A DNA stretch of 63,222 bases, filler included, from a bacterium (GCA_046331705.1; 3 parts of 3 records of this genome joined end to end with filler, not necessarily neighbours in it), one strand, 5' to 3'. Positions 6,380-24,490 are shown, numbered from the whole stretch's first letter. The notes: generated by a model not told the origin, from the letters alone. Made by a program: numbers and translations.

Positions 6380-6922
6380 TCACTTCGACCAGGAACGGAC
6401 GGTATCGAGCGTCTTGTCCGCGAACTCGACCTCGTTCGGGAGCGGCTTGCCGAGCCAGTCGCGATAGAACGTGTCGAGATCGGGCAGGAACTCGAAGTCG
6501 GGCGGTGTGCCGCGCGGCACGGCTTCGACCTCGAGCTGGGTGCCGCAACCCGGGCAGTAGTACTCGCGGACCTGGGTCCACGCCGTGTCCGGCTGCTCGG
6601 TGCCGCGATAGACCTCGGCGAGCTTCTCCGGCGTGTCGCGCACGTGGATGAGCGCCGAGAGCTTCCAATTCACGCGGTAGTCGCCGAGCTCGTGGCCGCA
6701 GCGGCACTTCACGACGCGCGCGCGGCCCTTCTGCACGATGAAGAGGCTCGGCCCGAGCGGCAGCAAGATGCGATCGCTCCACGCGACCCGGCTCTGAAGG
6801 ATCTGGACCCACTTCTCGAAGCGGTCGGAGTCCTTCGAGTCCTTCATGATCTCCTGGACACGCGGCCAGGGGAGCTTGCCGTCGACCAGCTTCTCGATCT
6901 CGGTGATGTCGTAGGTCGGCAT
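6380..6922 (-). CDS. Acetone carboxylase gamma subunit-like protein (AcxC/ApcB family)
   Basis: IEKLVDGKLPW, KDSDRFEKWVQILQSRVAW, Zn ligands KCRCGH and REYYCPGCG, FLPDLDTFYRDWLG. Confidence 0.9.
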   Translation of the reverse strand: MPTYDITEIEKLVDGKLPWPRVQEIMKDSKDSDRFEKWVQILQSRVAWSDRILLPLGPSLFIVQKGRARVVKCRCGHELGDYRVNWKLSALIHVRDTPEKLAEVYRGTEQPDTAWTQVREYYCPGCGTQLEVEAVPRGTPPDFEFLPDLDTFYRDWLGKPLPNEVEFADKTLDTVRSWSK

Positions 6923-6965: not shown

Positions 6966-9350
6966 TCAGAAGGAGAAGGTCTCCGGCAACTGCCAGAACG
7001 CCCGCAGCTCGGCGCCGAAATCCGGCGAGAGCTGCATCGACGTGCGCCACATCTCGGACACGGCGCTCGCCATGCCTTCCTTGGCCTCGACCTTCCGGCG
7101 CTCCTCTTTCCACCAATCCTTGAACGGCACGGCGCGCTTCTTCCGCGCCTCGCGGATCGCGGCGCGCTTGGCCTTGGTGGCGGCGGCGTCGATGGTCCAG
7201 GTCTTGGTGCTGGCGTCGAAGCTCGCCACCACGCCGTGGACGTCCTCGGCGATTCGCTGGCGTGTCCAGCCCTTGTCGAGGTCGGCGCGCACCATCTCGG
7301 GGTCGCGCTCCAGCGGATCGCCGAAGGCCTGCGCGCCGGAGATCGGGTGGATCACCAGGTCGTATTCGTGGAGCTGCTCCTTGGTGACGAACGGCGCCAC
7401 CTCGTTGGTGGCGACGAGCCGTGCCTCGATGTTCTTCTCGAGGTCGCCGTGCTCGGAGTCGCCACGCTCGTGGACCAGCGGACGCTGCTCGTCGATGAGC
7501 TGCTTGACGTTGGTGCCGGCGGCGTAGGCGGCGCGGTCCGGCCAGGTGGGGTAGGCGCCGAACATGCCGTGGTTGGGGAGCACCTTGCTGCGCATGCCCG
7601 CGCAGCCGCATTGGTACTCCACTCCCGGCGAGTTCTTGATCATCCACACGACGGTGTGGCCGAGCCCGCCGCGATAGGTCCCGTACCCACCCGAGTCCGG
7701 CTCCAGATTTCGACCGAGGTAGAGGATGGGGTAGTAGAGCTCGGTGATCTCGGCGTTACCGAAGTCGGCGTTGGCGGTGTAGATGCACCAGGCGCTGTTC
7801 TCGCCGTCGCCGATGGCCCGCGCCGGGGCGCCGTTCGAGGCCTGCTCCAGCGTGAGGCCGGCGCCGTACATGCCGTATTGATTGATGCCCGCGAACTCGG
7901 CGGTGAGCGTGGTGGCGGCGCCGGTCGCCACCTCCTCGACGAAGCCGCGCGAGTAGTAGAGCCGGCCGAACACCTCGTAGAGCGAGCTCAGCCACATCAC
8001 GGCCGGCGCCCAGGCAACGCCCGACGACGCGGCCCAGTTGACCGGGTAGGGGTTGGCCCACGAGCCGCCCGGCGGAGTATCGATGGTCCACGACGCCACC
8101 GACCCCCAGTTGAACATGTCGAAGCCGACGACGTGCGAATACGCCATGAGCACGCCCGAGAGAATCGCCGTGGGCGTGATGTTCTGACCGAAGGGCACCC
8201 ATCCCGAGGCGCCCGTGAGTGAGAACCGCACCCGTGCGTTGCCATCGATCTCGATGCGCATCGGCAGGTGGAAGAGGCAGTCCACGTTCTGCTGCGGCGT
8301 GAGCAGACGCTTGCCGGCCATCGCCAAGTCCTTGAACTGGGACTTGCGGATCAGACCAGGCACCGCCTGGCCGCGCACGCGGCCGGTGGCGTAGCGGCGA
8401 CTGTCCTCGATGTACTCGCGGGCCGCGTCCTCGAAGAAGTCGAGCCCGTATTTCTCGATGACCGCCGTGAGCCGTTCCTTGATCGTGAGGCAGCCCGCGA
8501 GCCGTCCGCGAGCGTCGCCCATGACCCAATCGGGCACGCGCGTGCGCGAGCGCATCCGCATCTCGTACCAGGGATAGAACGCGTTGTTCTCGCCGATGCG
8601 CTCCATCGTGACGGGGACGCCGTCCGAGTAGCAATCGGGATTGATGAAGCCGATCGAGCCGGGCAGCACGTAACCCGCGTCCATGGCGTGGGTGACCGCC
8701 GTGGCCCACGCGATGAGCCTGCCCTTGTAGAAGATCGGCATGGCCGTGTCGAAGTCGGCCGAGTGGATACCGCCGTAGTGCGGATCGTTGTTCTCGTAGA
8801 TGTCCCCGTCCTTGAAGCCGGGGTTCTCCTCGAAGCCGCTCTCGATCAGCGAGCGGATGAAGAGCGACAAGAGGCCGGGGTGCGCGGTGATGCCCCGCGA
8901 GGTGCAGATCGCCTCGCCGGTGGGCAGGTGCAAGCCCCACAGCGCGTCGCCGCCTTCCGCGGCGATGGGCGAGGCCGAGACCTTGCAGCCCACCGTCCAC
9001 GCCGCGTCGCAGAGGTTGAGCAGGATCTGCCACACCGCCTCGTACTGGCCGGGATCGGCCTCCTTGCGCGGCATGCGCTTCAAGCCGAAGAGGTGCCCGG
9101 TCTTCGCGAGCAGCCGATCGTTCTCGGCGAGCTCTTGGCGCAGCGTGCGGCGCGGTGCCGGCTTCGCGGAAGGCGCGCGCGCGGGTGTCTTGCGGGCCAC
9201 CGCCCTGCGCGTCTGCGCCTTGGGCGCCGGGGCCTTGCCGCGTGCCGCTGCAACCTTCTTGGCGCCCGCGGCCTTGGCGCCCTTCGCCAGTGGGCGCTTC
9301 GCCACCGCCTTCGCGGCGTTCTTCTTCGCCGACGCGGTCTTGGTGCTCAT
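6966..9350 (-). CDS. Acetone carboxylase alpha subunit-like protein (hydantoinase B/oxoprolinase family, AcxB-like)
   Basis: SASPIAAEGGD, GFEENPGFKDGDIYENNDPHYGGIHSAD, VTHAMDAG (metal-ligand His/Asp/His region), DSGGYGTYRGG and FGDPLERDP. Carries a Lys/Ala-rich N-terminal extension. Confidence 0.9.
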   Translation of the reverse strand: MSTKTASAKKNAAKAVAKRPLAKGAKAAGAKKVAAARGKAPAPKAQTRRAVARKTPARAPSAKPAPRRTLRQELAENDRLLAKTGHLFGLKRMPRKEADPGQYEAVWQILLNLCDAAWTVGCKVSASPIAAEGGDALWGLHLPTGEAICTSRGITAHPGLLSLFIRSLIESGFEENPGFKDGDIYENNDPHYGGIHSADFDTAMPIFYKGRLIAWATAVTHAMDAGYVLPGSIGFINPDCYSDGVPVTMERIGENNAFYPWYEMRMRSRTRVPDWVMGDARGRLAGCLTIKERLTAVIEKYGLDFFEDAAREYIEDSRRYATGRVRGQAVPGLIRKSQFKDLAMAGKRLLTPQQNVDCLFHLPMRIEIDGNARVRFSLTGASGWVPFGQNITPTAILSGVLMAYSHVVGFDMFNWGSVASWTIDTPPGGSWANPYPVNWAASSGVAWAPAVMWLSSLYEVFGRLYYSRGFVEEVATGAATTLTAEFAGINQYGMYGAGLTLEQASNGAPARAIGDGENSAWCIYTANADFGNAEITELYYPILYLGRNLEPDSGGYGTYRGGLGHTVVWMIKNSPGVEYQCGCAGMRSKVLPNHGMFGAYPTWPDRAAYAAGTNVKQLIDEQRPLVHERGDSEHGDLEKNIEARLVATNEVAPFVTKEQLHEYDLVIHPISGAQAFGDPLERDPEMVRADLDKGWTRQRIAEDVHGVVASFDASTKTWTIDAAATKAKRAAIREARKKRAVPFKDWWKEERRKVEAKEGMASAVSEMWRTSMQLSPDFGAELRAFWQLPETFSF

Positions 9351-11518
9351 TTGCGGTTACCGCCCTTCTTCTGGTTCTTGTTGGTGAGCCAGTAGATCTC
9401 GTGTGCGTCGATCTTCACGTGCCAGTCCTCGGGCACGAAGAGCGTCGTGTTGGGGGCCTCGATGATGGCGAGCCCGTCGATCTCGTTGCCGGGGCGCAGC
9501 TCGCTCATCTCGTAGGTGCGAGCGTCGATCCAGCGACCCTTCTGGAAGCAGCGGCGGATGCCCTTGAACGATTGCTTCGAGGGCTTCTTCCCTTGGAGCG
9601 GCTGCTTCACGATCTTGGGCTTCACCGTGTTCACCCGCGCCACCACGCTCACCTCGGTGACGTTGAAGGTGGGGAAGGTGGGCTTGGCCGCGAGCGTGAA
9701 CATCTTGGTGAAGAGCTCTTCGTGGCGCGCCAGCAGCTTGTCCACGTCCTTGGGGGTCTCGAGGCGCGCGACCGGCGAGTCCACCTCGACGTCCTCGAGC
9801 TGCCCGTAGTAGCGGATGTAGGCGATCTGCTGAAGCTGGATCTGATCGCGGCTGAAGCCCTCGCCGATGAGCTCGGTCAGGAGCTCGTTCTCCAGGTGCG
9901 CCCAGGTGGCGCTGACGTGTGCCAGCGCCTGCACCTTCGCGGCGCCGTCCATGCCCGGGAAGATCAGCGCGGTCACGCTCTTGTGGCGCCGGTGCGCGTA
10001 ATCCATGCACGCGCCGCCCCAGGCCGAGAAGGCGCCGGCGTGCGCGACGGTCGCGATCGACTTCCAGGGGTAATCGCCCGCGTACGGGATGAGGTGCATC
10101 GGGCCGCCGCCGCCGTAGCCGAGCAGCATGTAATCGCGCAGGTCGTGACCCACCATGAGGCTGCGCACCAGGTGCTCGCGCATCACCACGTTCACCAGGT
10201 CGAAGCACTGCTCGGCCGCGACGTAAGGGTCCAGCCCGAGCGGCCGCGCGATCTTCTCGGTGACGATGTCGAGCGAGGCCTTGGGATTCACCTTCACCCG
10301 GCCGCCCAGGTAGTACTCGGGGTTGATGATCCCGAGCAGCATGTTGCAGTCGTTGATCGTGGGGATGTCCGGGTTGCCGGTCTCCTGAAAGACCGGTCCA
10401 GGCGTTCCGCCGGCACTGTCGGGCCCGAGCTTGATGCGCTTGGTCTGCGGATCGAGGCGGATGTAGGTGCCGGTGCCGGCGCCGATCGACTTGATGTCGA
10501 TCATCGGCACGTTGACCTTCATCTTCTGGAAGGGCGGCTCGCGGTTGATCGGCAGCACCCCCGCCGTGATGGCGCCGGCGTCGAAGCTGGTGCCGCCCAC
10601 GTCGGAGCACACGATGTTCTTCTCGCCGATGACCTTGCCCAGGTAATCGGCGCCCATGATCCCGCCCACCGGGCCGGACATGACGGTCTCGAAGAGCCGG
10701 TTGTAACGGATGTTGGTGACGCCGCCGTAGCAGAGCACCGTCTTGAGCGACTTCGCGTAACCCTTCTCGGCGAGCTTTTCCTCGACCTGGAAGAGCTGCT
10801 TGCGCGCCGGCTGCGACGCATACGCTTGGATCACGGTGGCGTTGGCGCGCGAGACCTCGCGCACGGTGGGCGCCACGTCGCTCGAGATGGAGATGGGCAC
10901 CTCGCGGCCCACCTCCTTCATCACTCGCCGCGCGATCTCGGCGGCCTTCTGCTCGTGGGCCGGGTTGTTGAAGGACTGGAGGAACACGATCGCCAGCGAC
11001 TGGATGCCCTCCTCGACCAGGAGCTCCCGCACGCCGCGCTCGACGTCGCCCTCGTAGATCGGGATCACCGGCTGACCGAACATGTCGATGCGCTCGGTCA
11101 CGCCCCGGGTGAGCCGCCGCGGCACCAGCGGCTCGCGGTGCTTGCGGTACTGCATGTGGGTGATCTCGGACCATTGCTCGTCGGTGAAGGTCTGCGAGCC
11201 GCGCCCCTGGACCACGATGTCCTCGAAGCCGCGCGTGGCGAGCAGGCCGGTCTTGAGCCCGTCCAGGTTGATGAGCGAGTTGAGCATCGAGGTGCCGGTG
11301 TAGATCGCGGTCTCGATGGACTCGCAGAACCGCCGGCCGTCCTTCTCCATGTCGAGGCCCATGTACTTGAGGGCCTCCTCCAGCGATTCCATGTAGCCGA
11401 TCGACTCGTCGTGACGCGTGGTGCGCGCCTTGCCGATGACCGAACGGCCGCGTTCGTCCACCACGATCACGTCCGTCATGGTGCCGCCCGCGTCACACGC
11501 AACCAGATAACGCGCCAT
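9347..11518 (-). CDS. Acetone carboxylase beta subunit-like protein (hydantoinase A/oxoprolinase family, ATP-binding, AcxA-like)
   Basis: DAGGTMTD, YTGTSMLN, SGPVGG, DVGGTSFD, SIGAGTG, GPDSAG and YGGGGPMH motifs. ATGA-type overlap with the next gene. Confidence 0.92.
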   Translation of the reverse strand: MARYLVACDAGGTMTDVIVVDERGRSVIGKARTTRHDESIGYMESLEEALKYMGLDMEKDGRRFCESIETAIYTGTSMLNSLINLDGLKTGLLATRGFEDIVVQGRGSQTFTDEQWSEITHMQYRKHREPLVPRRLTRGVTERIDMFGQPVIPIYEGDVERGVRELLVEEGIQSLAIVFLQSFNNPAHEQKAAEIARRVMKEVGREVPISISSDVAPTVREVSRANATVIQAYASQPARKQLFQVEEKLAEKGYAKSLKTVLCYGGVTNIRYNRLFETVMSGPVGGIMGADYLGKVIGEKNIVCSDVGGTSFDAGAITAGVLPINREPPFQKMKVNVPMIDIKSIGAGTGTYIRLDPQTKRIKLGPDSAGGTPGPVFQETGNPDIPTINDCNMLLGIINPEYYLGGRVKVNPKASLDIVTEKIARPLGLDPYVAAEQCFDLVNVVMREHLVRSLMVGHDLRDYMLLGYGGGGPMHLIPYAGDYPWKSIATVAHAGAFSAWGGACMDYAHRRHKSVTALIFPGMDGAAKVQALAHVSATWAHLENELLTELIGEGFSRDQIQLQQIAYIRYYGQLEDVEVDSPVARLETPKDVDKLLARHEELFTKMFTLAAKPTFPTFNVTEVSVVARVNTVKPKIVKQPLQGKKPSKQSFKGIRRCFQKGRWIDARTYEMSELRPGNEIDGLAIIEAPNTTLFVPEDWHVKIDAHEIYWLTNKNQKKGGNRK

Positions 11519-12383: not shown

Positions 12384-12403
12384 AAGTGAAACGTGTTCTA
12401 CTT
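12384..12403. promoter_or_regulatory. KstR-like palindromic operator upstream of the coxG-acx operon
   Basis: AAGTGAAACGTGTTCTACTT. The core TGAAACGTGTTCTA fits TnnAACnnGTTnnA. About 80 bp upstream of the coxG-like start, in an AT-rich patch. Confidence 0.75.
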
Positions 12404-12642
12404 CTAGCAGCGCGCGTCGAGACCGTCAACGCAAACGATCCCGCGAGCGGTCGCGGGGCACGCAGCGGTGGATGACGAAGCGGACGCGCGGCCCCGCGCG
12501 GAACCTCGAGACGTGCAGCTGGCGCGGGGACATCCGTCACGCGCCGTGCGGTCGTCCGGGAGCCGCTCGCCAGCCGATGCGATCGCGCGAACGGAGCCAC
12601 GGGCGCGCGTCCGCTCGCCAGGTGGCCGGGCGGGCGCGGCGG

Positions 12643-15558
12643 TCAGGCTGCGGACGGGGCGGATCGAGCGATCCGCTCGGCAGCCAGGGCGGAGCGCACG
12701 ATCTGGTACTCGGCGAGGATTTGCGGCACGAGCCGCTGGGCGTCGTCGGCGGCGCCGGCGCGGGCGCTGGCCATGGTCTGCATGCAGAGCTCGGCGAGGC
12801 GCTTGGCGCCCAGCATCCCGCTCGACGATTTGAGCGTGTGCGCGGCGCGCCCGATGGCCGCGAGATCTCCGCGCTCGTGCGCCTCGGCGAGCGAGGTGAG
12901 CAGCTGCGCCGAGGAGTCGAGGTAGGAATCGATGGCGCGCACCAGCAGGCTCGGCGCGCCGGCGCGGGTGAGCTGATGAAGCTCCTCGAGCGCTTGCGCG
13001 TCGAGGACGGCGCTCGGTGGTGCCGGGGGTGTCGCGCCAGCCGCAGCGCTCGCGGCCCGCGGCTCGCGCGGAGCAGGCGGTCGCGCAGCCGCCGCGGGCA
13101 CCCAGCGCAGCACCAGCGCGCGGAGCTGGTCGGCGCGAAACGGCTTGCTCAAGTGATCGTCCATCCCCGCAGCGAGGCATTCCTGGCGGTCTTCGTCGAG
13201 GGCGTGCGCGGTGAGCGCGATGATCGGGATGCGCCGCGCGTGCGCGGGGTCGGCGCCCGCGAGCGCGGACTCGCGCTCGCGGATGCGCCGGCTCGCGGCG
13301 AAGCCGTCGAGGATGGGCATCTGGCAATCCATGAGCACCAGGTCGTAGTGTTCGCGGGCCACGGCGTCGACGGCTTGCTGGCCGTGCTCGACGATCGCGA
13401 CGGTGCAGCCGAGCTTCTCGAGCATGGCTCGCGCGACGTCTTGATTGACCGGGTTGTCCTCGGCCAGCAGCACGCGCGCCGCGAGCTCGCGGTGGTGTGC
13501 CCCGACGTCCCGAATGCGGGTGGTCTCGACGAGGCTCTGAGGCCGCGCGCTCACGGCGCTGAGCAGGGCGCGCAAGAGATCCGACTGGCGGGTCGGCTTG
13601 GTGAGCCACGCCACCACGTTGCCGAGATCGCGGCGCACCTCGGCGTCGGGCGCCACCGACGTGAGGAGGACGAGGGGCGTGCGGCGCAGCTCGGGGTCGC
13701 GTTGGATGGCGCGCGCCAAGGTGAGCCCGTCCATGCCCGGCATGTGCACGTCGAGCACCGCGATCTCGAACGGATTGCCCTGGCTACGCGCCGCGCGCAG
13801 TCGCTCGAGCGCCGCCTCGCCGCCGTCCACGAGCTCGTCGACGACGCCCCACTTGGCGAGCTGGAGGTGCAGGATCTCGCGATTGGTGGCGTTGTCGTCG
13901 ACGGCGAGCACGCGCCTGCCGGCGAGGATGCGGGCATCCGCGACATCGCTGCGGGAGGCGCCGTCGCAGGCGGGCAGCGGCACCGCGAACGTGAACGTCG
14001 AGCCGCGTCCCGGCTCGCTGGTGGCGCGGATGGTGCCCCCCATGAGATCGGCGAGCTGGCGGCAGATCGCGAGCCCGAGGCCGGTGCCGCCGAAGCGGCG
14101 GGTGGTCGAGGCGTCGGCCTGAACGAACGGATCGAAGAGGTGCTCGAGCGAGACAGGGGCGATGCCGATGCCGGTGTCGCGCACCGAGAACGTGAGCGTG
14201 GTCGCGTTCGGCGCCGGGCCGGACACGCGCACGACCACCTCGCCGCGCTCGGTGAACTTGATCGCGTTGCCGACCAGGTTCGTCATCACCTGACGTAGAC
14301 GCACGGGGTCGCCCTGAACCAGCGCGGGCACCGAGTCCTCCACCACGTAGAGCAGCTCGAGGCCCTTGCGATGCGCGCGGTCGGCGAGCAGCTCGACCAC
14401 GTCGCCGACGAGCTGGCGCAGATCGCATTCGGTGGTCTCGAGCTTGAGCTTGCCGGCCTCGCTCTTCGAGAAGTCGAGGATGTCGTTGATGACCTGCAGC
14501 AACGCCTCGGCAGAGCGGTGCACGGTCTTCGTGTAGCGGCGTTGCTGATCGTCGAGGCCGGTGCCGAGCAGGAGCTCGGTCATGCCGAGGACGCCGTTCA
14601 TGGGTGTGCGGATCTCGTGGCTCATGTTGGCGAGGAAGCGCGACTTCGCTCGGCTCGCCTCCTGTGCCGACTCGGCCAGCTGATTCGCTTGCTGGGTGGC
14701 GGCGGCGAGCGCCGCGGTCCGGGCGGCGACCTTCTCTTCCAGCGTGCGCTGCTGCTGCTCGACCTGCTGGCGGTACGCGCGCAGCCGCTCCAGCATGCGC
14801 TGGAATGCGTGGCCCAGGTCGCCGACCTCGTCGTTGCTGGTGACGTCGACCGATTGCTCGAAATCGCCCTCGGCGATCTCGCCCGTCACCCGCGCCAGGG
14901 CGCTGATCGGCCGCACCAGATAGCGCGTGAAGTAGAGCGTCGCCAGCACGCCCACGAGGACCAGCGAGCCGGTGGCGACGAGGGTCGCGGCGACGAACCC
15001 GCGCACCCGCTCGGTCATACCCTTCTGACTCAGCCCCACCTGGACGAATCCGAGCGGGCCGGTCGCCATCTCGTCGGGGTCACGGGCGAACATCAGGTCC
15101 GCGGGTGCGATGGGAGCGCTGCGCGTGACTGCCGCCACCACCTCCACGTAGGTCTGGCCATCGCGGCTGCCGGTGATGCGTCGCGCGACGAGGCCCTTGC
15201 CGTCGCTCGGCAGCGTCGCCGTGTCGAGCGCTGGAGGGGGCATCGACCCGGCGACGGTCTTCTCGGCGAGCGGCTGCTGCCGCGCGTCCAGGATCCGCAC
15301 GAACGCGACGTCCGCCGAGTCGGCGACGGATCCCACGATCCGCGCCAGCTCGTCGGGCGCGCGGGTGTAGATCGCGTACTGGCTCTCGCTCGACATGCCG
15401 CGCGCCAGCTCTCGGCCGCGCAGCTCGAGCGCCGTGCGCGCCTCCGACCACGTGCGATAGCCGGCGAACGCGGCGATGCCGGCCGACGACACGAGGACCA
15501 GGGAAGCGCTCAGCAGGCTGAACTGGCTGGCGAGGCTGCGGCGACGACGTGGCGACAT
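12643..15558 (-). CDS. Hybrid sensor histidine kinase (TM-periplasmic sensor-TM, HAMP, HisKA, HATPase, two REC, HPt; BarA/GacS-like)
   Basis: [38 protein letters not shown], two receiver domains ([20 protein letters not shown]) and HPt AAHTLKSSS. Confidence 0.95.
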
Positions 15559-15571
15559 GGTCCGAGGGACC

Positions 15572-16546
15572 TCATTCGTAGCGCGAGGCGGCGGCCTCGA
15601 CGAGCGCCGCGGGGATCTCGATCTTCATCGAGCGCATGGTCTGGAGATTGATCGATTGGAGCACCTTGCGCGGCGTGCTGGGTGCGGGAGCGCGCGACGC
15701 GGCGAACGATCCTGCGGCGAGCGCTTGCTCGCCGCACTGACGTCCCAGGTCGACGTAGTCGCGCTCCAGCGCGTAGAGCGCGCCGGCCTTCACCCACGAC
15801 TCGGAGGGCCCGACGAGGGGGATGCGACTCTGCAGGGAGAAGAGCAGCAACGTCTTGGCCGCTTCGGGCGAGAGCACCACGCCGTCGGGGATGCCGAGCA
15901 GCAGCTGCGCGCGCTGATCGAAGTTCTTGAGGGCCACCGGCAGCTCCTCGGGGGTCGGCACCTCGCGCGTCACGAGCTCCAGGCCGAGCTTGGCGGCGGC
16001 CGTGCGGGCGGAGGCGACGCGCTCGCCGTTCTCTTTCGGGTTGAAGAGCACGCCCACGATGGTGCGATCGGGCAACATGCGGCGGACCCAGTCGAGCTGT
16101 TGCTCGATCGGGAACTCGAGCGTCACGGCGGTGGCGTTGGGGCGATCGCGCACCACCTCGGGAGAGAGCACCAGGCACGCCACCAGCGGCGGCGCCGCCA
16201 GCTCGGCGGTCACCAGCCGCGTCGCGACGGCGCCCAGCGTCACCACCGCTGACGGACCCTCTCGCAGCCACTCGCCGAGCGCCGCGCGAGCCTGCCGCGG
16301 GTCGGCGGACGCGCGCTCGACCCGCAGCTCACGGCCCGCCGGGTCGCCGGCGAACGCCTCGCGAAGCCCCTGAATGGCCTCGCGATAGGGCCTGGCGTCG
16401 TCGCTCGAGATCACCAGCACGCGCGCCGCGAGCGTGCGGGTCGCGCCCGACGCGCAGAGCGGACCCGCCGCGAGACACGCGGCCACCAGCCAGCGCGAGC
16501 CGCGCTTCGCGAGGCTCGCGATCCGAGCGAGGAGGTGCGTGCCCAT
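15572..16546 (-). CDS. Periplasmic ABC-type substrate-binding protein (ABC_sub_bind-like) with no cognate transporter
   Basis: ATG at 16546 overlaps the receptor's TGA. Signal-like N-terminus, [42 protein letters not shown] and SINLQT. Confidence 0.8.
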
Positions 16547-18681
16547 CACGGCCACGGCAGCTCGTAGCTCAGGTTCAGCCAGAACGTGCGCCCATCCTGA
16601 GGAATGCGGTCTTGGCGGAGCTCGTCCGTGACGGGATCGGCGTAGTGCTGATCCAGCACGTTGCGGACGGTGGCGGCGACGGCGAGGCCGCCCAGCCAGC
16701 GGCGCGAGGTGAGGGTGACGTCGATCGGGTAGGCGGCGGCGACGCTGGCGCCGGCGCGGGTCTTGCGCGGCGACAGGTAGCGCGCTTGGACCGCGGCGCC
16801 GAGGGCGTCGCCCACGATCGGGAACGCCGCTGCAGCGACCAGGGTGTTCTCCGGCGAGTCGGCAAGCGAGACGTCGGTCTCGTCGGTGGCTCGCTGCAGC
16901 CCGTAGCCGAGCTCCACCTGCGCCCCTCCGTCGAAGCGGCCGATCAGACGCAGCTCGGCGCCCAGCGCGGAGACGCTGGCGGCATTGCGATAGACGAGCA
17001 GGCCGTCGCTCTCGTCGCTGGTGAGGGTGACCAGATCGTCGATCGAGTAGTGGTAGATCGAACCCGAGAGCTCGAGGTGTTCGGACAGCGATTGCTCGGC
17101 GACCAGCTCCACTTGGCGGATCGTCTCGGGCGAGAGATGGCCTGGCGGCTTCTGCGTGATGCCGTCGGCGTAATGGAGCTCGTACGCGTTGGCGGCGCGG
17201 AATGCTTCGCCGTAGATCAGCTTGACGGTGGTCGGGTCGAACGGTCGCGCGATGACCGCGACCCGTGGGCTGAGGCGGCTGGTTCCCGGTACCTCGGCAT
17301 CGAAGCGCAGGCCCGCGTTCAGGATGAGCCATGGAGTGACGTGGAACTCGTCCTGTGCGAAGAGCCCCCAGTCGACGGTCTCGCGCCGATCGTCGAGGGT
17401 GAGCGGCTCGCCCTCGTCGCCGTCGTGCTGGCGAATGCGGAAGTTGGTGCGGTTCTCGGCGCCGACGACCACCCGGTGGGCATCGAACAGCATCTTGCTG
17501 AGCTGGATCTCGGCGCCGACGCGCTGCGAGTCGGCGTCGTCGAGCCACAGCGAGGTGTCGCTGGGGTCCTCCTCGGGCCCGGCGTAGAGATAGCGGCCGT
17601 TGTAGCGGAACCAGTCGTAGACCACCCGCAGCTCGGGGGTGAAGCCGGCGATCTCGGTGGGGCGGTAGTCGAGGTCCATCCACGCGTATTGATCGCGGGT
17701 GCGGTTGCGATCGGTGGGGAAGACGGTGTCGAACGGGGATGTGGGCAACGTCTTGTCGCTCGATCCGTGTCCCGCGCTGAGCGTGAAGTCGTGGTACGAG
17801 CCCTTGCCGTAGAGGTGGTAGATGAAACCACCATCGGCGTCGCGTACGGTGCCGTTCGCGGTGGAGGGATCGTCGAACGCCGAATACTCGAGGCTCGCAC
17901 GGCCCTCGCTGCTCGCCACCGAGCCGGCGACCAACGCCTCGAGGCCGCTCGACGATTGCGCGCCGGCGGCGAGCCGTCCCGCATAGCTCGCGTGGCTCCC
18001 CCATTCGAACCGGGGCTCGGCGCCGGCGAGGTCGCGACCGCGGCGGGTGATCACGTTCACCACGCCGAAGAAGGCGCTCGTGCCGTAAAGCGAAGAGGCG
18101 GGTCCGCGCACCACCTCGATCCGGTCGATGAGGCTCAGGTCCACCGGAAAGTCCGCGCTCAGCGGCGCTTGATCGTAGATCGGGTTGTTGAGGCGGTGGC
18201 CGTCGACCAGGAGCAGGATGCGACAGTTGTAGTCACCCGCGCCGCTGAACCCACGCACTCCGAGGTACACGTAGTTGCGGTCGTAGGTCGTGTAGAAGCC
18301 GGGCAGGCGGGCCAGCACCTCGGCGAGGTTTCGATAGCCGAAGCGCCAGATCTCGTCGCTGGTGATCACGCTCACGGCGGACGGCGCGTCGCCGACTCGC
18401 TGGGCGTAACGCGAGGCGGTCTGGACCGAGGGGATCTCGCCGAAGAGGACCGATTCGTCCGCGCCGCCGGATCCACCGAGGGGGTCGTCCTGGGCGCGGG
18501 ACGTCGCCGCCAGCGCCGCGAGGAGCAGCACGCCGATCAGCCGCGACGGCGCGCCGGTGGCGGCCGCGCGGCGAGGGCGCGCGGGAGCGCGCGGTCGCAC
18601 CACGGGCGGGGCGGCGAGTTCGCGAAACATGGCGCACACCCACGATGCGAAGGCGAGGTTCGATTCATGGGAGTCGAGCAT
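16546..18681 (-). CDS. TonB-dependent outer-membrane receptor (start may be 18631)
   Basis: Plug motifs APSAVSVITSDEI, RILLLVDG and IDRIEVVRGPASSLYG. Barrel C-terminus NVLDQHY...GRTFWLNLSYEL. Confidence 0.92.
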   Translation of the reverse strand: MLDSHESNLAFASWVCAMFRELAAPPVVRPRAPARPRRAAATGAPSRLIGVLLLAALAATSRAQDDPLGGSGGADESVLFGEIPSVQTASRYAQRVGDAPSAVSVITSDEIWRFGYRNLAEVLARLPGFYTTYDRNYVYLGVRGFSGAGDYNCRILLLVDGHRLNNPIYDQAPLSADFPVDLSLIDRIEVVRGPASSLYGTSAFFGVVNVITRRGRDLAGAEPRFEWGSHASYAGRLAAGAQSSSGLEALVAGSVASSEGRASLEYSAFDDPSTANGTVRDADGGFIYHLYGKGSYHDFTLSAGHGSSDKTLPTSPFDTVFPTDRNRTRDQYAWMDLDYRPTEIAGFTPELRVVYDWFRYNGRYLYAGPEEDPSDTSLWLDDADSQRVGAEIQLSKMLFDAHRVVVGAENRTNFRIRQHDGDEGEPLTLDDRRETVDWGLFAQDEFHVTPWLILNAGLRFDAEVPGTSRLSPRVAVIARPFDPTTVKLIYGEAFRAANAYELHYADGITQKPPGHLSPETIRQVELVAEQSLSEHLELSGSIYHYSIDDLVTLTSDESDGLLVYRNAASVSALGAELRLIGRFDGGAQVELGYGLQRATDETDVSLADSPENTLVAAAAFPIVGDALGAAVQARYLSPRKTRAGASVAAAYPIDVTLTSRRWLGGLAVAATVRNVLDQHYADPVTDELRQDRIPQDGRTFWLNLSYELPWP

Positions 18682-18887
18682 TCGAGTGCAGTGTGCAAGC
18701 CACGCGCCGCCTGTCGTGGTGTGCTGGCGGAGTGCGAACTGCTGGAAATCATGACGGTATCTTCTGCGTAGCCGTGGTGCCCGTCGGGGTGGGGCGGTCC
18801 GAAATGGGCGGATCGCCCGATGGGCTCGCGATCGTGCACACCCGCTGGTCTCGCGGCGGCTCGCGCCGCGCGACGGCTTGCGGCACC

Positions 18888-18907
18888 AAGTAGAACATGT
18901 TCTACTT
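18888..18907. promoter_or_regulatory. KstR-like palindromic operator in the divergent TonB receptor/fadD3 intergenic region
   Basis: Perfect 20-bp palindrome AAGTAGAACATGTTCTACTT, about 170 bp upstream of the CoA ligase. Confidence 0.8.
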
Positions 18908-19076
18908 CGTGCCGCGCGGTACGCGGCACGCTCACCGGCGCGGTGGATCGGCGGCTCGCTGCTGCTCCAGCCCCGGTTGCCCCTGGGGTGTTCTCAGCCG
19001 ATCGGTCGGGAAGATCGCAATCTCGCGGAGGAGGCCTGAACCGCTGCGCGCGGACAGGACCTAGGAAGCGCCGTCG

Positions 19077-20696
19077 ATGGACTTGACCGATTGGACGATC
19101 CCGCGCCTGGTGCGGCGAGCCGCAGAGCGCTTTCCCAGCGCCCATGCCCTCGAGGACGGCGCCGCCGTCCTCACCTTCCCGGAGCTCCTCGCCGCGTCGC
19201 GGCGCGCCTCCGCGGCCCTCCTCGCCGCAGGCGTGACGCCCGGCGATCGCGTGGCGATCTGGGCGCCCAACGTCCACGAGTGGGTCGTGGCCGCGCTCGG
19301 CATCCATGGCGTCGGCGGCGTGCTGGTGCCGCTCAACACGCGGATGAAGGGCGCCGAGGCCGGCTACGTGCTGGAGAAGAGTCGGGCGCGTTTGCTCTTC
19401 GTGGTCGCGTCCTTCCTCGACAACGACTACGTCGCGATGCTGCGCAACGCGCTGGGAGGGCCGGACGGAGCGCGCCCGGTCGGCGGGCTGCCGGCGCTCG
19501 AGCGAATCGTGGTGCTGCGCGGCGGCGCCGCCCCGGGTTGTGTCGAGTGGGAAGCGTTCCTGCGCGGCGGAGAGCGGCTCGATCCCGCGGTGGTGGAGGA
19601 GCGGGCGCACGCGGTCGAGCCCGACGATCTCTCGGACATCCTCTTCACCTCGGGCACCACCGGGAAGCCCAAGGGCGTCATGACCACCCACGCGCAGAAC
19701 CTGCGGGCCTACGCGGCGTGGAGCGAGGTCGTCGGCTTGCGCGCCGGTGACCGCTACCTGGTGGTCAACCCGTTCTTCCATGCCTTCGGCTACAAGGCCG
19801 GCTGGCTGGCCTCGCTCCTGCGCGGAGCCACCGTGTTGCCGCACCTGGTTTTCGACGTGCCGCAGGTGCTCGAGCGGATCGGGCGCGATCGGATCACGAT
19901 GCTCCCCGGCCCACCCACGCTCTATCAGATGATCCTGGCCCACCCGGATCGCGACCGGTTCGACCTGCGTTCGCTGCGGCTCGCCGTCACCGGCGCGGCG
20001 TCGATTCCCGTCGAGCTCATCGTGCGCATGCGTCGCGAGCTCACCTTCGAGACGATCATCACGGGCTACGGGCTCACCGAGGCGTGCGGCATCGCCACGA
20101 TGTGCCGTTACGACGACGATCCCGAGACCATCGCCACCACCTCCGGCCGCGCGATTCCCGACGTGGAGGTGCGTTGCGTCGATCCCGAGGGCGTGGAGGT
20201 CGCGCGGGGCACGCCGGGCGAGATCGTGGTGCGCGGCTACAACGTCATGCGCGGCTATTTCGAGGACCCGCGTGCGACGGCCGACGCCATCGACGCCGAG
20301 GGATGGCTGCACACGGGCGACATCGGCGTCATGGACGCGCGTGGCTACCTGCGCATCACCGATCGCATCAAGGACATGTTCATCGTGGGCGGCTTCAACG
20401 TGTATCCCGCGGAGGTCGAGGCAGGGCTCGTCGCGCACGACGGAATCGCACAGGCCGCCGTGATCGGTGTCCCCGACGAGCGCTTGGGCGAGGTGGGCAT
20501 GGCGTGGGTGGTGCCGCGCCCCGGAGCCGCGCTCGACGCCGACGCCCTCGTCGGCTGGTGTCGAGAGCGCATGGCCAACTACAAGGTGCCGCGCTACGTC
20601 GAGATCGTGGACGCGCTGCCGCTCAACGCCTCGGGCAAAGTCACCAAGTTCGTGCTGCGCGACCGCGCCCGCGAACGCCTCGCCGTCGCCGGCTGA
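19077..20696 (+). CDS. fadD3: FadD3-family acyl-CoA ligase (HIP-CoA ligase-like)
   Basis: DILFTSGTTGKPKG, YLVVNPFFHAFGYKAG, AVTGAASIP, YGLTE, ATTSGRAIP, KDMFIVGGFNVYPAE and MANYKVPR are characteristic of the FadD3 subfamily. The subfamily call is less certain than the ligase call. Confidence 0.8.
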   Translation: MDLTDWTIPRLVRRAAERFPSAHALEDGAAVLTFPELLAASRRASAALLAAGVTPGDRVAIWAPNVHEWVVAALGIHGVGGVLVPLNTRMKGAEAGYVLEKSRARLLFVVASFLDNDYVAMLRNALGGPDGARPVGGLPALERIVVLRGGAAPGCVEWEAFLRGGERLDPAVVEERAHAVEPDDLSDILFTSGTTGKPKGVMTTHAQNLRAYAAWSEVVGLRAGDRYLVVNPFFHAFGYKAGWLASLLRGATVLPHLVFDVPQVLERIGRDRITMLPGPPTLYQMILAHPDRDRFDLRSLRLAVTGAASIPVELIVRMRRELTFETIITGYGLTEACGIATMCRYDDDPETIATTSGRAIPDVEVRCVDPEGVEVARGTPGEIVVRGYNVMRGYFEDPRATADAIDAEGWLHTGDIGVMDARGYLRITDRIKDMFIVGGFNVYPAEVEAGLVAHDGIAQAAVIGVPDERLGEVGMAWVVPRPGAALDADALVGWCRERMANYKVPRYVEIVDALPLNASGKVTKFVLRDRARERLAVAG

Positions 20697-20827
20697 ACCG
20701 GCGCGCCGGCGCGCCCGGCGTCGAGCCACTTCCCTCGAGGTGCACGCGGCGCTCGAGATCGGTACGATCCGCGTACTGGTTTCCCCCGACGCGTCCGCTC
20801 GGTCGCGTCGCGGGACCGAGAGCGCCC

Positions 20828-22291
20828 GTGCGGATCGTCGTCGCCAACTCGCCGCTGACCCTCGGGCCGCAGTTCCCGATCCCCACGATCATCCTCGACA
20901 AGGGCAAGGACATGCCCTTGGGACCGCTCTACCTGGCGGCGGCGCTCGGACAGGCCGGCTACGACGACGTGCACGTGCTCGACATCCACTCGCTGGGGTT
21001 GAGCCCGGCGGCGGCGGCGCAGCGGATCGTGGCGCTCGCCCCCGACCTGCTGGCGGTCAAGGTCTACAGTTTTTCCTGGTACGACGCCGTGCTCCTCGCC
21101 CGCGAGGTGCGGCGCGGCCTGCCGCGCTGCCACATCGCGTTCGGCGGTCCGCACGCCGATCACTACGCGGCGGCCATGGCCTCGGTGGGCGCGTGCGACA
21201 GCGTGTGCGCCGGTTACGGGGAGGCGGCGATCGTGGCGCTCGCGCGCGCGGTCGAGCGCGGCGCGTCGCCGGCGGGTATCCCGGGGATCGCGTACCACGA
21301 CGGCGCGAGCGTCGTGAGCACGCCGCCGGCGCCGCTACCGGACGACCTCGACACGATCCCCTTTCCCGACCGCGGGCGGGTGCGCCTCGAGGACTACACC
21401 TCGTGGATGATCGATCGTCCGCTCGCCACCACGGCGGTGATGACGAGCCGCGGTTGTCCGTTCGCCTGTGCGTTCTGCTCGGAGGCGCGCACCCGATTCC
21501 GCCAGCGCAGCGTGGCGAACGTGGTCGCCGAGCTGCGCGACTGCCACGAGCGCGGCTACCGGATGGTGAACTTCGAGGACGACATCATGAACCTCGACCG
21601 CCGCTGGATGCTGGCGTTCGCCGACTCGATGGCGTCGCTCGCCGCGCGGCCGCAGTGGGGATTTCGCGGTCGCGTCGGCGGCTTCGATCGCACGCTGGCC
21701 CGCGCGTGCGCCCGCGCCGGTTGTACCCGCATCAACTTCGGCGTCGAGTCGGGAACGGACGCGATCCAGGCCTGGATGGGGAAGGGGATCACGCTCGCCG
21801 ACGTCCGCCAGGCGGTGGCGGCCGCGAGGGAGGAAGGCATCACGACGGTCTGCTACTTCATCCTCGGGTTCCCGAGCGAGACCCCCGAGATGATGCGCGC
21901 GACCTACCGCTTCGCCCGCGAGATCTCGCCGGACTACGCCCAGTTCACACCGCTGGTGGTGCTGCCCGGAACCCAGCTCTACGAGCGGGAGCGCAAGCTC
22001 AACGGTCCCGACTACGACCCCTTCCTCGACTACACCCTCGCACCGCGTCCCGGGTTCGCGATCCCGCCGCCCACGGGTACGGCGCCGCGCGCGACGGTGT
22101 TCCGCCACGTGCGCGCCGCGTATCTGGGCTACTACTTCCGTCCGCGATTCCTGTTTTCCGGCAAGGCCACCCGCGGCGGGTGGCGGCGCGGGTTGCGCGC
22201 CGGCTTGTCCTTGGTCGCGTACGTGTTGCGTGGGAACCGCGGCTATCGCGAGCGGGCGCCGCTCGCCATGCCGGCGCTCGCCGCGTCCTGA
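20828..22291 (+). CDS. Cobalamin-binding radical SAM protein (class B methylase/BchE-like)
   Basis: PLGPLYLAA, FGGPHA, TSRGCPFACAFC (CxxxCxxC), FGVESG and FILGFPSET. GTG start at 20828 is inferred. Confidence 0.88.
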   Translation: MRIVVANSPLTLGPQFPIPTIILDKGKDMPLGPLYLAAALGQAGYDDVHVLDIHSLGLSPAAAAQRIVALAPDLLAVKVYSFSWYDAVLLAREVRRGLPRCHIAFGGPHADHYAAAMASVGACDSVCAGYGEAAIVALARAVERGASPAGIPGIAYHDGASVVSTPPAPLPDDLDTIPFPDRGRVRLEDYTSWMIDRPLATTAVMTSRGCPFACAFCSEARTRFRQRSVANVVAELRDCHERGYRMVNFEDDIMNLDRRWMLAFADSMASLAARPQWGFRGRVGGFDRTLARACARAGCTRINFGVESGTDAIQAWMGKGITLADVRQAVAAAREEGITTVCYFILGFPSETPEMMRATYRFAREISPDYAQFTPLVVLPGTQLYERERKLNGPDYDPFLDYTLAPRPGFAIPPPTGTAPRATVFRHVRAAYLGYYFRPRFLFSGKATRGGWRRGLRAGLSLVAYVLRGNRGYRERAPLAMPALAAS

Positions 22292-22337
22292 GCCGTTCCA
22301 GGCGCGCGCGAGGCGGGCGGGGCGCGGGCCAGCGCGC

Positions 22338-24095
22338 TCACGAGCGCGCTCCCGCCGCCGCCAGAGGGCGAGGCTCGACGGCGCGCGGCGACGGATCGCG
22401 CTCACCGTCGCGATCTCGCGTCGGCACGGGTGGCGTGCGGCGCTCGCGCCCGGGCTCGGCGGCCCGCGCCGCATCGGCAGCCGGCGTGGGTCCCGTCGCG
22501 GGCACGGGTGCCGCTCGCAGCCATTCGAGCAGGCGCCGTATCTCGGGCACCCCAAACAGGCGCGCCAGCCCGAGGTCGACGAGCACGCCCAGGACGCCGA
22601 GCGCCACGAGCTCGGCGAGGCGCAGCACGCTCGCGGACTCGGCGCTCAGGGCGGTCGCCGCCGCGTGGCTCGTGATCCAGGCGCTCGCGTGCTCCTCGAT
22701 CGGCACCAGCGCCGCGCCCATCGCGGTCGCCGCGAGCCACGGCCGGGCGCTCGCGCGGACGAGGCGCGCGAGACCCAGCCTGCCGAGACGCCGCCTGAGC
22801 AGCATCACGAGCAGCGGAAACGAGATCCACGCGTTGACGCTGAACGCGAACGCGATCCCGCCCACGTCCCAGCGTTCGGCGAGGCCGTAGCCGAGCAGCG
22901 TCATCGGCGGCAGCAGCGCGAACGCGAGAGCCGCCAGCCGCCGCGCCTCGCCCATCGACATCGCCAGATAGGTCGGCACCTGGTTGAGGACGATCGCCGC
23001 GATCCACGGCGCGAAGCCGAGCACCACGTCGCCCGTGAGGCGCGTGCTCTCCGCGGAGAAGCGGCCCCGCTCGAAGAGCGCTCCGACCAGCGGTGCGCGC
23101 AACACGATGACCAGCACGATCAGCGGCGCCAGCGCGACGCTCGCGATGCGCACGAAGCTCACCACCAGCAGGCGCAGCCGGGCGAGGTCGCCGGCTGCGA
23201 CCAGCGCCGCCATCCGCGGGTAGAGCGGCGAGACCAGCGAGCCCTGCACCAGCGTCGGGATCACCGCCAGCACCGAGGTGCCGTAGCGGAACGCCGCGAC
23301 CCGGCCCGCGCCCAGGTGCGACGCGAGCGCGGAGGCGATGCCGAAGCCCGTCACCACCGCCAGCGAGAACGCGGTGGTGGGCGCGATCTGACGCAGCACC
23401 GCCTGGAAGGAATCGTCGCGCCAGTCCACACCGATGCGCAGATCGCGGCGATGGGGGAGCAGCCGGGGCAGCACGGCGAGCGCTTGGAGCGCGTAGCCTC
23501 CCACCACGCCCCACGCCGCCCCTTCGATCCCGATCCTCGGGCCGAGCAGCAGCACGCCGGCGATGAGGCCGAGGCTGGGGAAGAGCGTCGCGATGGCCGT
23601 CGAGGTGTAGCGGCCATGCGAGTAGAGGACGGCCTCGGCGATGGCGAAGGCAGGGAAGAGCACCAGCACCGGCGCTGCGATGCGGCTCATGCGCACGAAG
23701 TGGCTGCCCGCTTCGCCGGCGAGGGAGGGGACCCAAGCGCGAGCGAACGGCACCGCCAGCGCGTAGCCGATGGCCACCACGCCGAGCACGCCGAGCGCGA
23801 AGCTCGCGACACTCGACGCCAGCCGCCACGCCTCCGGCTGACCCTCGTTGTCGCGCGTGGCGACGAAGCGGGGAACCAGGCAGAGGTGCAGGATCGAGCG
23901 GCTGTGGAAGCCGAGCAGCACCGGCAGGAGCTGAGCGAGAAAGAAGGCGTCGGTTTCCGGGCCGGCGCCGAAGCGGGCGGCGACCACCGCCACCGACACG
24001 AACCGCAGCCCCAGCGAGACGATGCCGATCGCGAGCAGCGCGACCGAGGCGGAGCGAAGGTGCTCCGGTTTGCCGAGGGACGGAGGGACGTCCAT
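22338..24095 (-). CDS. MurJ/MviN-like lipid-linked precursor flippase
   Basis: AARFGAGPETDAFFLA, many TM helices and LFERGRFSAEST. Start re-set to MDVPP. Confidence 0.82.
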   Translation of the reverse strand: MDVPPSLGKPEHLRSASVALLAIGIVSLGLRFVSVAVVAARFGAGPETDAFFLAQLLPVLLGFHSRSILHLCLVPRFVATRDNEGQPEAWRLASSVASFALGVLGVVAIGYALAVPFARAWVPSLAGEAGSHFVRMSRIAAPVLVLFPAFAIAEAVLYSHGRYTSTAIATLFPSLGLIAGVLLLGPRIGIEGAAWGVVGGYALQALAVLPRLLPHRRDLRIGVDWRDDSFQAVLRQIAPTTAFSLAVVTGFGIASALASHLGAGRVAAFRYGTSVLAVIPTLVQGSLVSPLYPRMAALVAAGDLARLRLLVVSFVRIASVALAPLIVLVIVLRAPLVGALFERGRFSAESTRLTGDVVLGFAPWIAAIVLNQVPTYLAMSMGEARRLAALAFALLPPMTLLGYGLAERWDVGGIAFAFSVNAWISFPLLVMLLRRRLGRLGLARLVRASARPWLAATAMGAALVPIEEHASAWITSHAAATALSAESASVLRLAELVALGVLGVLVDLGLARLFGVPEIRRLLEWLRAAPVPATGPTPAADAARAAEPGRERRTPPVPTRDRDGERDPSPRAVEPRPLAAAGARS

Positions 24096-24338
24096 GCGAC
24101 GTTGCGTACGCGAGCGAGCACCGCATCCACGGGGCGTGGGTGGTCGTGCTCGTCGCCGTGCTGGGATAGCCGAGCATCCGGCATGCCAGCGTTCGCCAGC
24201 GCTGGGCGGCGATTTCGTCTCGCTGCGCTGACAATGCGCCTGGCCGTCAGGCGCAACGCCCGGGCAAAGGTCCGCAATCGTCGCGACGAGAGCACAGCGG
24301 TCGACCGATTGACGCCCTCGCGGCGCGGTTGGCGGTCG

Positions 24339-24358
24339 AAATAGAACGTGTTCTACTT
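24339..24358. promoter_or_regulatory. KstR-like palindromic operator upstream of the thiolase
   Basis: AAATAGAACGTGTTCTACTT with core TAGAACGTGTTCTA, 45 bp before the thiolase ATG. Confidence 0.8.
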
Positions 24359-24402: not shown

Positions 24403-24490
24403 ATGCCCGAGGCCTACATCGTCGACGCCGTCCGTACACCCGTGGGCAAGCGCAAGGGCGGGCTCAGCCAGGTCCATCCGGCGGACCTGG
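24403..24490 (+). CDS. Acetyl-CoA C-acyltransferase (thiolase), FadA6-like, truncated by the assembly gap
   Basis: GAGGAG RBS, then MPEAYIVDAVRTPVGKRKGGLSQVHPADL, a classic thiolase N-terminus. Not in the ORF track. Confidence 0.85.

Follow-up and report, generated by a model that had tools for sequence, protein, structure and literature searches.

Probable KstR-type operators and a predicted steroid regulon in a diderm bacterium of an uncultured phylum

Three operators on contig C82 and their counterparts in the genome

The stretch of DNA analysed here (the window, 63,222 nt of the bacterial assembly GCA_046331705.1) carries three copies of a palindrome that resembles the operator of the actinobacterial TetR-family repressor KstR. 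The window is not a contiguous piece of the genome. It consists of three contigs joined by runs of N (24491-24590 and 48994-49093), with C82 covering positions 1-24490, C83 covering 24591-48993 and the start of C101 covering 49094-63222. All three operators and all genes described from the window lie on C82, and at both ends of this contig an operon is severed. The assembly comprises 8.17 Mb in 118 contigs with 70% G+C and is 95.67% complete and 2.57% contaminated; GTDB places it in an uncultured phylum of six species and two genera. Genes were called from the G+C content of third codon positions (GC3) and annotated with Pfam and NCBIfam. In the following, G000 denotes the source genome, G002 and G003 genomes of the same genus, G005 a genome of the other genus and G043 a genome labelled Binatia. 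C2, C7, C34, C47 and C63 are further contigs of G000, and L-numbers denote extracted loci. The operators, with their scores in the position weight matrix (PWM) described below, are:

12384..12403, no strand, operator 1, AAGTGAAACGTGTTCTACTT, PWM score 37.4, 77 bp upstream of the CoxG-like gene
18888..18907, no strand, operator 2, AAGTAGAACATGTTCTACTT, perfect palindrome, PWM score 42.4, the top score of the genome
24339..24358, no strand, operator 3, AAATAGAACGTGTTCTACTT, PWM score 38.2, 44 bp upstream of the thiolase ATG

A degenerate 20-mer run over the whole window retrieves exactly these three matches, with 0.00 expected from 100 dinucleotide-preserving shuffles. The original prediction had named the same three 20-mers, with a perfect palindrome in the middle one, as intergenic and AT-rich elements of a GC-rich genome that precede a coxG-acx operon, a fadD3-like ligase gene and a thiolase gene. 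All of this is confirmed. The operators have 30–35% G+C compared to 70% for the genome, the gene calls place all three between genes, and the distances to the three starts are 77, 169 and 44 bp. Operator 2 is located between divergent genes, with the TonB-receptor gene at 206 bp on the other side, and operator 3 precedes the thiolase ATG at 24403 with a divergent MurJ-like gene 243 bp away. The sequence of operator 1 is identical in G005 and G002 with diverged flanks and represents the longest invariant block in the cross-genome alignment upstream of coxG. Likewise, operator 2 is the longest invariant block in a three-genome alignment, and an orthologous site upstream of the thiolase in G002:C105 matches operator 3. 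At operator 1, a conserved TTGACG was spotted visually, followed after 17 nt by a TAGAAG that shares bases with the operator arm. As a visual lead, TTGACG-N17-TAGAAG could be a promoter overlapping the operator.

The 14-bp core of the operators, TAGAAC-N2-GTTCTA, is the published KstR palindrome, as the original prediction had stated. In sections of Kendall 2007 (PMC1995591), the Mycobacterium tuberculosis operator in the kstR promoter is given as TAGAAC(N2)GTTCTA with the consensus TnnAACnnGTTnnA, and the cyp125/fadA5 site as AATGAAACGTGTTCTAGCCT, which contains the half-site variant TGAAAC. The same sections report 16 and 31 genomic instances of the motif, often in divergent promoters. Both the identical core and the TGAAAC variant are common to the mycobacterial sites and those found here, where the half-site is either GTAGAAC or GTGAAAC.

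For the genome-wide scan, mismatches to the palindromic consensus were counted around the seed AAC-N2-GTT, which yields 16 places with at most 3 mismatches at the 18 specified positions, and a symmetrised PWM was then applied with a threshold of 20. We find 27 sites at or above this score in G000, with the next best at 17.8. A Markov-3 random genome contains none, and the mean over 20 column-permuted matrices is 0.025. Intergenic location is strongly favoured (23 of the 27 sites, although a fraction of 0.851 of the genome is called coding; P = 9e-16 in a binomial test). These 23 sites are distributed over 20 regions (loci L001-L021); for 20 of the sites, a correctly oriented start follows no more than 150 bp downstream, and for the other three the distance is 169–535 bp. 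As in the KstR regulon, the sites number in the dozens, frequently sit in divergent promoters and are in places doubled. Information content is limited to 20 bp, and the flanks average a pairwise identity of 0.31. Because these flanks carry no information, the strong sites do not represent a dispersed or mobile repeat. The PWM scan finds no operator scoring 10 or more on C83 and C101. Across four genomes of the phylum, a 16-mer pattern yields 26–27 matches in each of the four, compared to 2–5 for the reversed control.

The genes next to the sites are the types that KstR controls in Mycobacterium and Rhodococcus. They include ChsE/ChsH-like acyl-CoA dehydrogenases (ACADs) and hydratases, with ACAD pairs accompanied by ChsH2-type (ChsH2-domain) and MaoC hydratases, an Ltp2-type protein (NF005892, 633 bits vs a cut-off of 469), a further Ltp protein (NF004715, 698 vs 424), a FadA5-type steroid 3-ketoacyl-CoA thiolase (NF005889, 648 vs 515) and an F420 oxidoreductase of the Rv3520c family (TIGR03559, 434 vs 335). 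A model for short-chain dehydrogenases/reductases (SDRs), NF005861, also passes its cut-off among the flanking genes. Five Rieske proteins with a KshA_C domain (313–344 aa) are found at sites together with a KshB-like FNR-type reductase; four of these five were submitted to NCBIfam and match no model at E <= 1e-40. A KstD-like flavoprotein near a site reaches 576 bits, below the cut-off of 789. Further flanking genes encode three P450s, a 3beta-HSD/5alpha-reductase pair, Steroid_dh and ERG2-like proteins, electron transfer flavoprotein (ETF), aldehyde dehydrogenases, several acyl-CoA ligases and Amidohydro_2 proteins. In total, genes whose family signature is specific to steroids occur in at least 12 of about 21 site regions, and none of the 27 strong sites flanks a DNA-repair or metal gene. 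Sites at further steroid-type genes, which the original prediction had anticipated, are observed; hits at repair or metal genes, or a genome lacking other steroid genes, which it had named as refuting outcomes, are not what we find.

The gene for the predicted KstR-like repressor

A single TetR gene lies within 8 kb of any site, namely C2:305294-305968 (L004:13294-13971), in agreement with the expectation that a KstR-like TetR protein is encoded outside the window. Its product combines the N-terminal helix-turn-helix domain PF00440 with PF17925, a C-terminal ligand domain. The best matches in the PDB are structures of M. tuberculosis KstR (5aqc, 3mnl, 5cw8, 5ua2; E = 5e-21, residues 28-216), followed by a TetR protein from Rhodococcus (3bjb, 3e-16) and then by the next entry at 4e-8. 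No second KstR-like copy or closer paralogue was found in G000. The gene is the fifth of a tight operon in the order ACAD, ACAD, ligase, ERG2-like, TetR, KshA-like, and the site at C2:300516 lies 4.7 kb upstream of it, at the operon start. As for KstR (Rv3574 / MSMEG_6042), the repressor gene is therefore located inside the regulon that it is predicted to control. The ERG2/sigma-1-receptor-like gene directly before it (L004:12733-13290, C2:304733-305290; PF04622, E = 8e-68) encodes a sterol-isomerase-type protein in a catabolic context.

The kstR-like gene is present in all six genomes of the phylum, and its product has 1458 metagenome homologues at E <= 1e-10. Among the 120 homologues listed, all contain PF00440 and nearly all also PF17925; two JGI entries are named 'cholesterol catabolism regulator', and the NCBI names among those listed point to Deltaproteobacteria or Myxococcales. 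A scan with one genome per species yields 18 kstR-like loci from metagenome-assembled genomes labelled Myxococcota, Deltaproteobacteria, Binatia, Gammaproteobacteria, 'Spirochaetales' or uncultured. The two closest loci resemble G000 in having the site at the start of the operon. Fourteen distant loci contain homologues of 44–57% identity, and in 10 of these 14 a TG(G/A)AAC-RT-GTTTCAA-type palindrome is found no more than 100 bp ahead of the kstR-like gene, ranking first or second among the positions of its locus; two of these ten sites are identical and hence not independent. These autoregulatory-type sites in front of kstR-like genes tie the protein clade to the palindrome.

Operons behind the three operators

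Operator 1 precedes an operon that runs along the minus strand to the start of C82:

11614..12306, minus strand, CoxG-like SRPBCC protein, first gene of the operon (PF06240, E = 2e-19)
9347..11518, minus strand, acetone-carboxylase-like subunit of the Hydantoinase_A type (PF01968, PF19278, PF05378)
6966..9350, minus strand, acetone-carboxylase alpha-like subunit of the Hydantoinase_B type (PF02538)
6380..6922, minus strand, acetone carboxylase gamma-like subunit (PF08882, E = 2e-40)
5068-6276, 3857-5071 and 2646-3860, minus strand, three tandem family III CoA-transferases (PF02515, E = 9e-72 to 5e-117)
2205..2630, minus strand, 141-aa protein with no Pfam or NCBIfam match, position kept in G003
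1133..2026, minus strand, MenB/BadI-like crotonase (PF00378; MenB 231 bits and BadI 214 bits, both below the cut-offs)
208..1077, minus strand, FAD subunit of a xanthine-oxidase-family molybdenum hydroxylase (PF00941, PF03450)
1..114, minus strand, N-terminus of a 2Fe-2S small subunit, cut by the contig end, with a translation that matches the G003 FeS subunit

Acetone carboxylase alpha (5m45, 5svb; E = 3e-107) is the closest solved structure to the alpha-like subunit, far ahead of acetophenone carboxylase delta (4e-42), and the Hydantoinase_A-type subunit stays far below the cut-offs of the NCBIfam models for acetophenone carboxylase and caprolactamase. The operon shares the Hydantoinase_A, Hydantoinase_B and Acetone_carb_G subunit types with acetone carboxylase AcxABC. 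Unlike AcxABC, these subunits are found among CoxG, three CoA-transferases, a MenB/BadI-like crotonase and a xanthine-oxidase-family enzyme, under a KstR-type operator. Such a context would argue for a ketone other than acetone as the substrate. The crotonase has its best PDB matches in MenB and is a candidate retro-Claisen ring hydrolase. We found no paper linking acetone carboxylase to cholesterol catabolism.

In G003:C48, the corresponding operon runs on through the FAD, 2Fe-2S and Mo subunits of a xanthine-oxidase-family enzyme, followed by thiolase-like, OB-fold and crotonase genes. Three genes of this G003 contig are split, namely Hydantoinase_A, one CoA-transferase and the Mo subunit (L046:740-2912, 8312-9521, 12416-14880), probably through assembly frameshift errors. 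A syntenic set is located at G000:C2:343978-352021, with a 2Fe-2S subunit and an 805-aa Mo subunit followed by proteins of 328, 401, 142 and 261 aa. Where C82 starts and C2 ends, the two contigs do not overlap exactly; their DNA is about 85% identical, with 2 differences in 36 residues between the nearly identical FeS N-termini. The C2 set may be either the continuation of the C82 operon, a join that is plausible from the synteny with G003:C48, or a paralogue.

In G043, Hydantoinase_A, Hydantoinase_B, gamma and three CoA-transferase genes occur in the same order, with an alpha-like subunit of 71% identity and a KstR-type palindrome CTAGAACGTGTTGCAA about 108 bp upstream. G043 is the only one of five distant kstR-like-bearing genomes in which an acetone-carboxylase-like gene was found. 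A KstR-type site at the carboxylase operon in both the phylum of G000 and G043 implies that the predicted co-regulation with steroid genes is conserved in two lineages. The predicted joining of this operon to the steroid regulon therefore gains support from outside the source genome, as the site is kept in the second genus (G005) and in G043. On G043:C5 (L057:8317-9399), a gene for an XdhC-type molybdenum-cofactor chaperone separates the carboxylase operon from an ACAD/CoA-transferase operon with a site of its own.

Operators 2 and 3 are associated with the remaining genes on C82:

12643..15558, minus strand, hybrid histidine kinase (HAMP, HisKA, HATPase, two REC, Hpt)
15572..16555, minus strand, substrate-binding protein, downstream of the receptor (PF04392)
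16546..18681, minus strand, TonB-dependent receptor, divergent from FadD3 (PF07715, PF00593)
19077..20696, plus strand, FadD3-family acyl-CoA ligase of the HIP-CoA ligase type (NF005801, equivalog, 780 bits vs 657)
20828..22291, plus strand, B12-binding radical SAM enzyme, downstream of FadD3 (PF02310, PF04055), order kept in G002
22338..24095, minus strand, MurJ-like flippase-family gene, divergent from the thiolase (PF03023)
24403..24490, plus strand, first 29 codons of the thiolase, which continues on C7 (reverse complement)

The TonB receptor, FadL-type proteins and flagellar genes indicate a diderm envelope, as had been claimed for this host. From its position next to operator 2, the receptor would belong to the regulon and is a candidate for the outer-membrane uptake step. 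In G005, a beta-helix protein takes the place of the substrate-binding protein and the histidine kinase. The MurJ-like gene is probably a bystander. Besides the radical SAM gene downstream of FadD3, two B12 radical-SAM genes elsewhere in the genome (G000:C7:171860-173533 and C47:20859-23504) hold strong sites within their coding sequence.

The final 58 nt of C82 and the end of C7, read as its reverse complement, agree at 57 of 58 positions. As the C82 thiolase continues on C7, operator 3 heads a whole operon for the degradation of HIP (rings C/D). In its C7 part, the thiolase reaches 688 bits for NF005865 (cut-off 591) and is followed by two SDRs (NF005861 and NF005893), a crotonase (NF005925, 432 bits vs 260), two adjacent CoA_trans genes (PF01144), a FabK-like NMO gene and four ACADs, 11 genes in all. 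The FabK-like IpdC candidate (PF03060) scores 243 bits for TIGR03151, below the cut-off. Sections of Crowe 2017 (PMC5380842) list FadD3, IpdAB, the FabK-like IpdC, IpdF, the MenB-clade EchA20 and FadA6 as HIP enzymes. Present here are FadD3, an IpdAB-type CoA_trans pair, a FabK-like protein, a MenB-clade crotonase, a thiolase and ACADs. In G002, a single contig carries an IpdB-like gene, thiolase, site, MurJ-like, radical-SAM, FadD3 and a second site; its HIP genes were identified by sizes matching those on C7.

In gene content, this share of the regulon resembles that of mycobacterial KstR2 (Rv3557c: fadD3, fadA6, ipdABC, echA20, fadE30-33). That mycobacterial fadD3 stands under a KstR2 motif, as the original prediction had stated, agrees with sections of Kendall 2010 (PMC3068626), where the motif AnCAAGnnCTTGnT is placed at Rv3549c/3550, kstR2 and fadE30/fadD3. 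Unlike in mycobacteria, the FadD3 gene and the HIP operon carry KstR-type operators here. Of the 9 genome matches to the KstR2-type motif, 8 fall within coding sequence. None of the 9 lies at the FadD3, thiolase or ipd genes, in C82 intergenic regions or in L045, in a search made for the motif and not for a KstR2 protein homologue; there is no signal for it at 13 FadD3/IpdA loci of other genomes either. With KstR-type sites at FadD3 and the HIP genes and the KstR2 motif at none of them, the KstR-type operator covers the mycobacterial KstR2 share in this lineage. The proposed rewiring of the regulon therefore stands for FadD3 and the HIP operon in this lineage and does not extend to most of the five more distant kstR-like-bearing genomes. 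There, a KstR-type site occurs within 1.5 kb on either side at 0 of 8 FadD3 and 1 of 5 IpdA loci, and the sole positive locus belongs to G043. Either the rewiring is not general, or the promoters sit further away.

A predicted KstR-type regulon and competing explanations

We conclude that the three 20-mers are, with high probability, operators of the KstR-type TetR repressor encoded at C2:305294-305968, and that this protein would control steroid breakdown genes together with the carboxylase operon. From the sites and the homologue we infer binding as well as repression. A repressor dimer would bind the 20-bp palindrome AAGT(AG/GA)AAC-RY-GTT(CT/TC)ACTT at or next to promoters and would repress about 20 transcription units as long as no steroid-derived ligand releases it. 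The ligand of M. tuberculosis KstR is a steroid CoA thioester, and by analogy the inducer here would be of the same kind. The regulon would cover sterol side-chain beta-oxidation, KshA/KshB- and KstD-like ring enzymes and FadD3, and beyond these the whole thiolase-led HIP operon, the TonB-dependent receptor and the acetone-carboxylase-like / CoA-transferase / MenB-like / molybdenum-hydroxylase operon.

The system is similar to the KstR regulon in its TetR-family repressor, whose best solved relatives are KstR structures (3mnl, 5cw8), and in its targets, with ACAD pairs, ChsH-type hydratases, Ltp/FadA5 thiolases, KshA/KshB-like, KstD-like, P450 and Rv3520c-like proteins. In contrast to the actinobacterial system, the host is a diderm, and the conserved operator reaches 20 bp (AAGT...ACTT). 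Also unlike the KstR regulon, a TonB receptor and the carboxylase/Mo-hydroxylase operon are included, and no HsaC/HsaD is found. One predicted repressor would cover what mycobacteria split between KstR and KstR2. As far as found in the literature, Actinobacteria are the only group for which KstR and its regulon have been described. Among about 8.4 million papers and preprints we found none that pairs KstR with Myxococcota, and no such regulon is described in the papers found on steroid degradation in myxobacteria or Deltaproteobacteria. The main text of Holert 2018 contains neither 'KstR' nor 'Myxo'. That of Bergstrand 2016 mentions neither Myxo- nor Deltaproteobacteria and uses KstR for KstR2 in actinobacteria. 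In the main text of Lee 2026, uncultured Myxococcota are mentioned only for a sterol reductase. The KstR-type repressor, its exact operator and its target genes recur in a diderm of a six-species uncultured phylum with relatives labelled Myxococcota and Binatia, so that more bacteria of soils and sediments become likely degraders of steroids.

Several observations weigh against this conclusion. The identity between the repressor and M. tuberculosis KstR is only about 30%, judged by eye from the alignment, and the kinship rests on the PDB ranking. In 4 of the 14 distant loci, no such site is found upstream of the kstR-like gene. Four of the 27 strong sites lie inside called genes (two in the B12 radical-SAM genes, one in an acyl-CoA ligase, one at a probably miscalled start), and the GC3-based calling is a crude method. 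A scan of the three operators on C82 for sigma-70 consensus promoters and terminators found none, which leaves an overlap with promoters as only a possibility. The models used as proxies for HsaC and HsaD (BphC, TIGR03213, and BphD, TIGR03343) give best scores of 27 and 35 bits in a genome that is 95.67% complete, where the missing 4% could hold hsaC/hsaD. With no HsaC/HsaD detected, this genome seems to lack part of the classical 9,10-seco route, and the actual substrate may be a different one.

This last point leads to an explanation in which the operator and a KstR-like regulator are real and the substrate is some other isoprenoid of polycyclic or branched structure, for instance a diterpenoid, a fragment of a hopanoid or a compound resembling bile acids. 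We consider it unlikely. It would account for the lack of HsaC/HsaD homologues and for the KshA_C proteins without an NCBIfam match, and the site-linked Amidohydro_2 protein has its best PDB relatives in PtmU3 and DitZ, which act on diterpenoid CoA esters. Sections of Kendall 2007 (PMC1995591) also argue that the mycobacterial regulon serves diverse lipids. However, FadD3 exceeds an equivalog cut-off, the FadA5-type steroid thiolase model passes its own, Steroid_dh, 3Beta_HSD and ERG2-like genes lie under sites, and the set of ipdAB, FabK-like, MenB-clade crotonase and thiolase genes fits the HIP pathway as given in sections of Crowe 2017 (PMC5380842). A polycyclic triterpenoid made by the organism itself is an unlikely substrate because no squalene or oxidosqualene cyclase domain was found in G000.

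It is very improbable that the operator is bound by another regulator and that the KstR-like protein on C2 recognises a different site. The arrangement in G000, where the kstR-like gene lies 4.7 kb downstream of the putative site within an operon, would allow for this. However, the KstR-like gene is single and has no closer paralogue, 10 of the 14 distant loci have an autoregulatory-type site immediately before the homologue, and KstR, the closest relative that has been characterised, uses the same operator. We give practically no credence to the 20-mers being chance matches, a dispersed repeat of the REP or MITE type or SOS (LexA) boxes. They are short AT-rich palindromes, and GAAC...GTTC resembles the LexA box of Gram-positive bacteria. 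Against this, none are expected from either the shuffles or the Markov-3 genome, the flanks carry no information, the spacing is N2 and not N4, no repair gene lies at any of the 27 sites, and the sites are kept at orthologous promoters across genera. The LexA-box, dispersed-repeat and chance readings are therefore rejected on the basis of the controls (0 and 0.025) and the uninformative flanks.

Returning to the KstR-type steroid regulon, the operator can serve as a guilt-by-association probe that flags the carboxylase/Mo-hydroxylase operon, the TonB receptor and the B12 radical-SAM genes for unassigned steps, among them outer-membrane uptake and oxygen-independent ring opening. For the latter, sections of Jacoby 2025 (PMC11780191) describe an oxygen-independent 2,3-seco route with a xanthine-oxidase-family dehydrogenase and an amidohydrolase-2 ring A hydrolase, found only in beta- and gamma-proteobacteria. 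Similar to this route in Sterolibacterium and Steroidobacter (1-testosterone dehydrogenase, 1-TDH; ring A hydrolase, SRAH), the regulon contains a xanthine-oxidase-family Mo enzyme and Amidohydro_2 proteins, a likeness at the family level only. Unlike there, the site-linked Amidohydro_2 protein is nearest to PtmU3 and DitZ. A ring opening of the 2,3-seco type is thus a lead, not a result. A more speculative proposal, to which we attach rather low probability, is that the carboxylase/Mo-hydroxylase operon is itself an oxygen-independent ring-opening module for steroid-derived ketones that stands in for HsaC/HsaD meta-cleavage, so that one KstR-type repressor would govern a hybrid aerobic/anaerobic pathway. 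The acetone-carboxylase-like enzyme would carry out an ATP-dependent carboxylation adjacent to a ring ketone, a family III transferase would activate the product with CoA, and the 2-oxo-cycloalkane-carboxyl-CoA would undergo BadI-like retro-Claisen hydrolysis.

Two further site regions deserve mention. Behind an operator scoring 40.4 (C7:52896), the locus L009:8800-13400 (G000:C7:52800-57400) contains only fragments of NMO, ETF-alpha and ChsH2-OB, which represent either a decayed copy (paralogue) of the intact cluster on C63 or a badly assembled stretch. A family 1 glycoside hydrolase gene (L014:9127-10998, G000:C34:11127-12998) ends beside the operator that precedes two KshA-like genes, an arrangement that may hint at the use of steroid glycosides.

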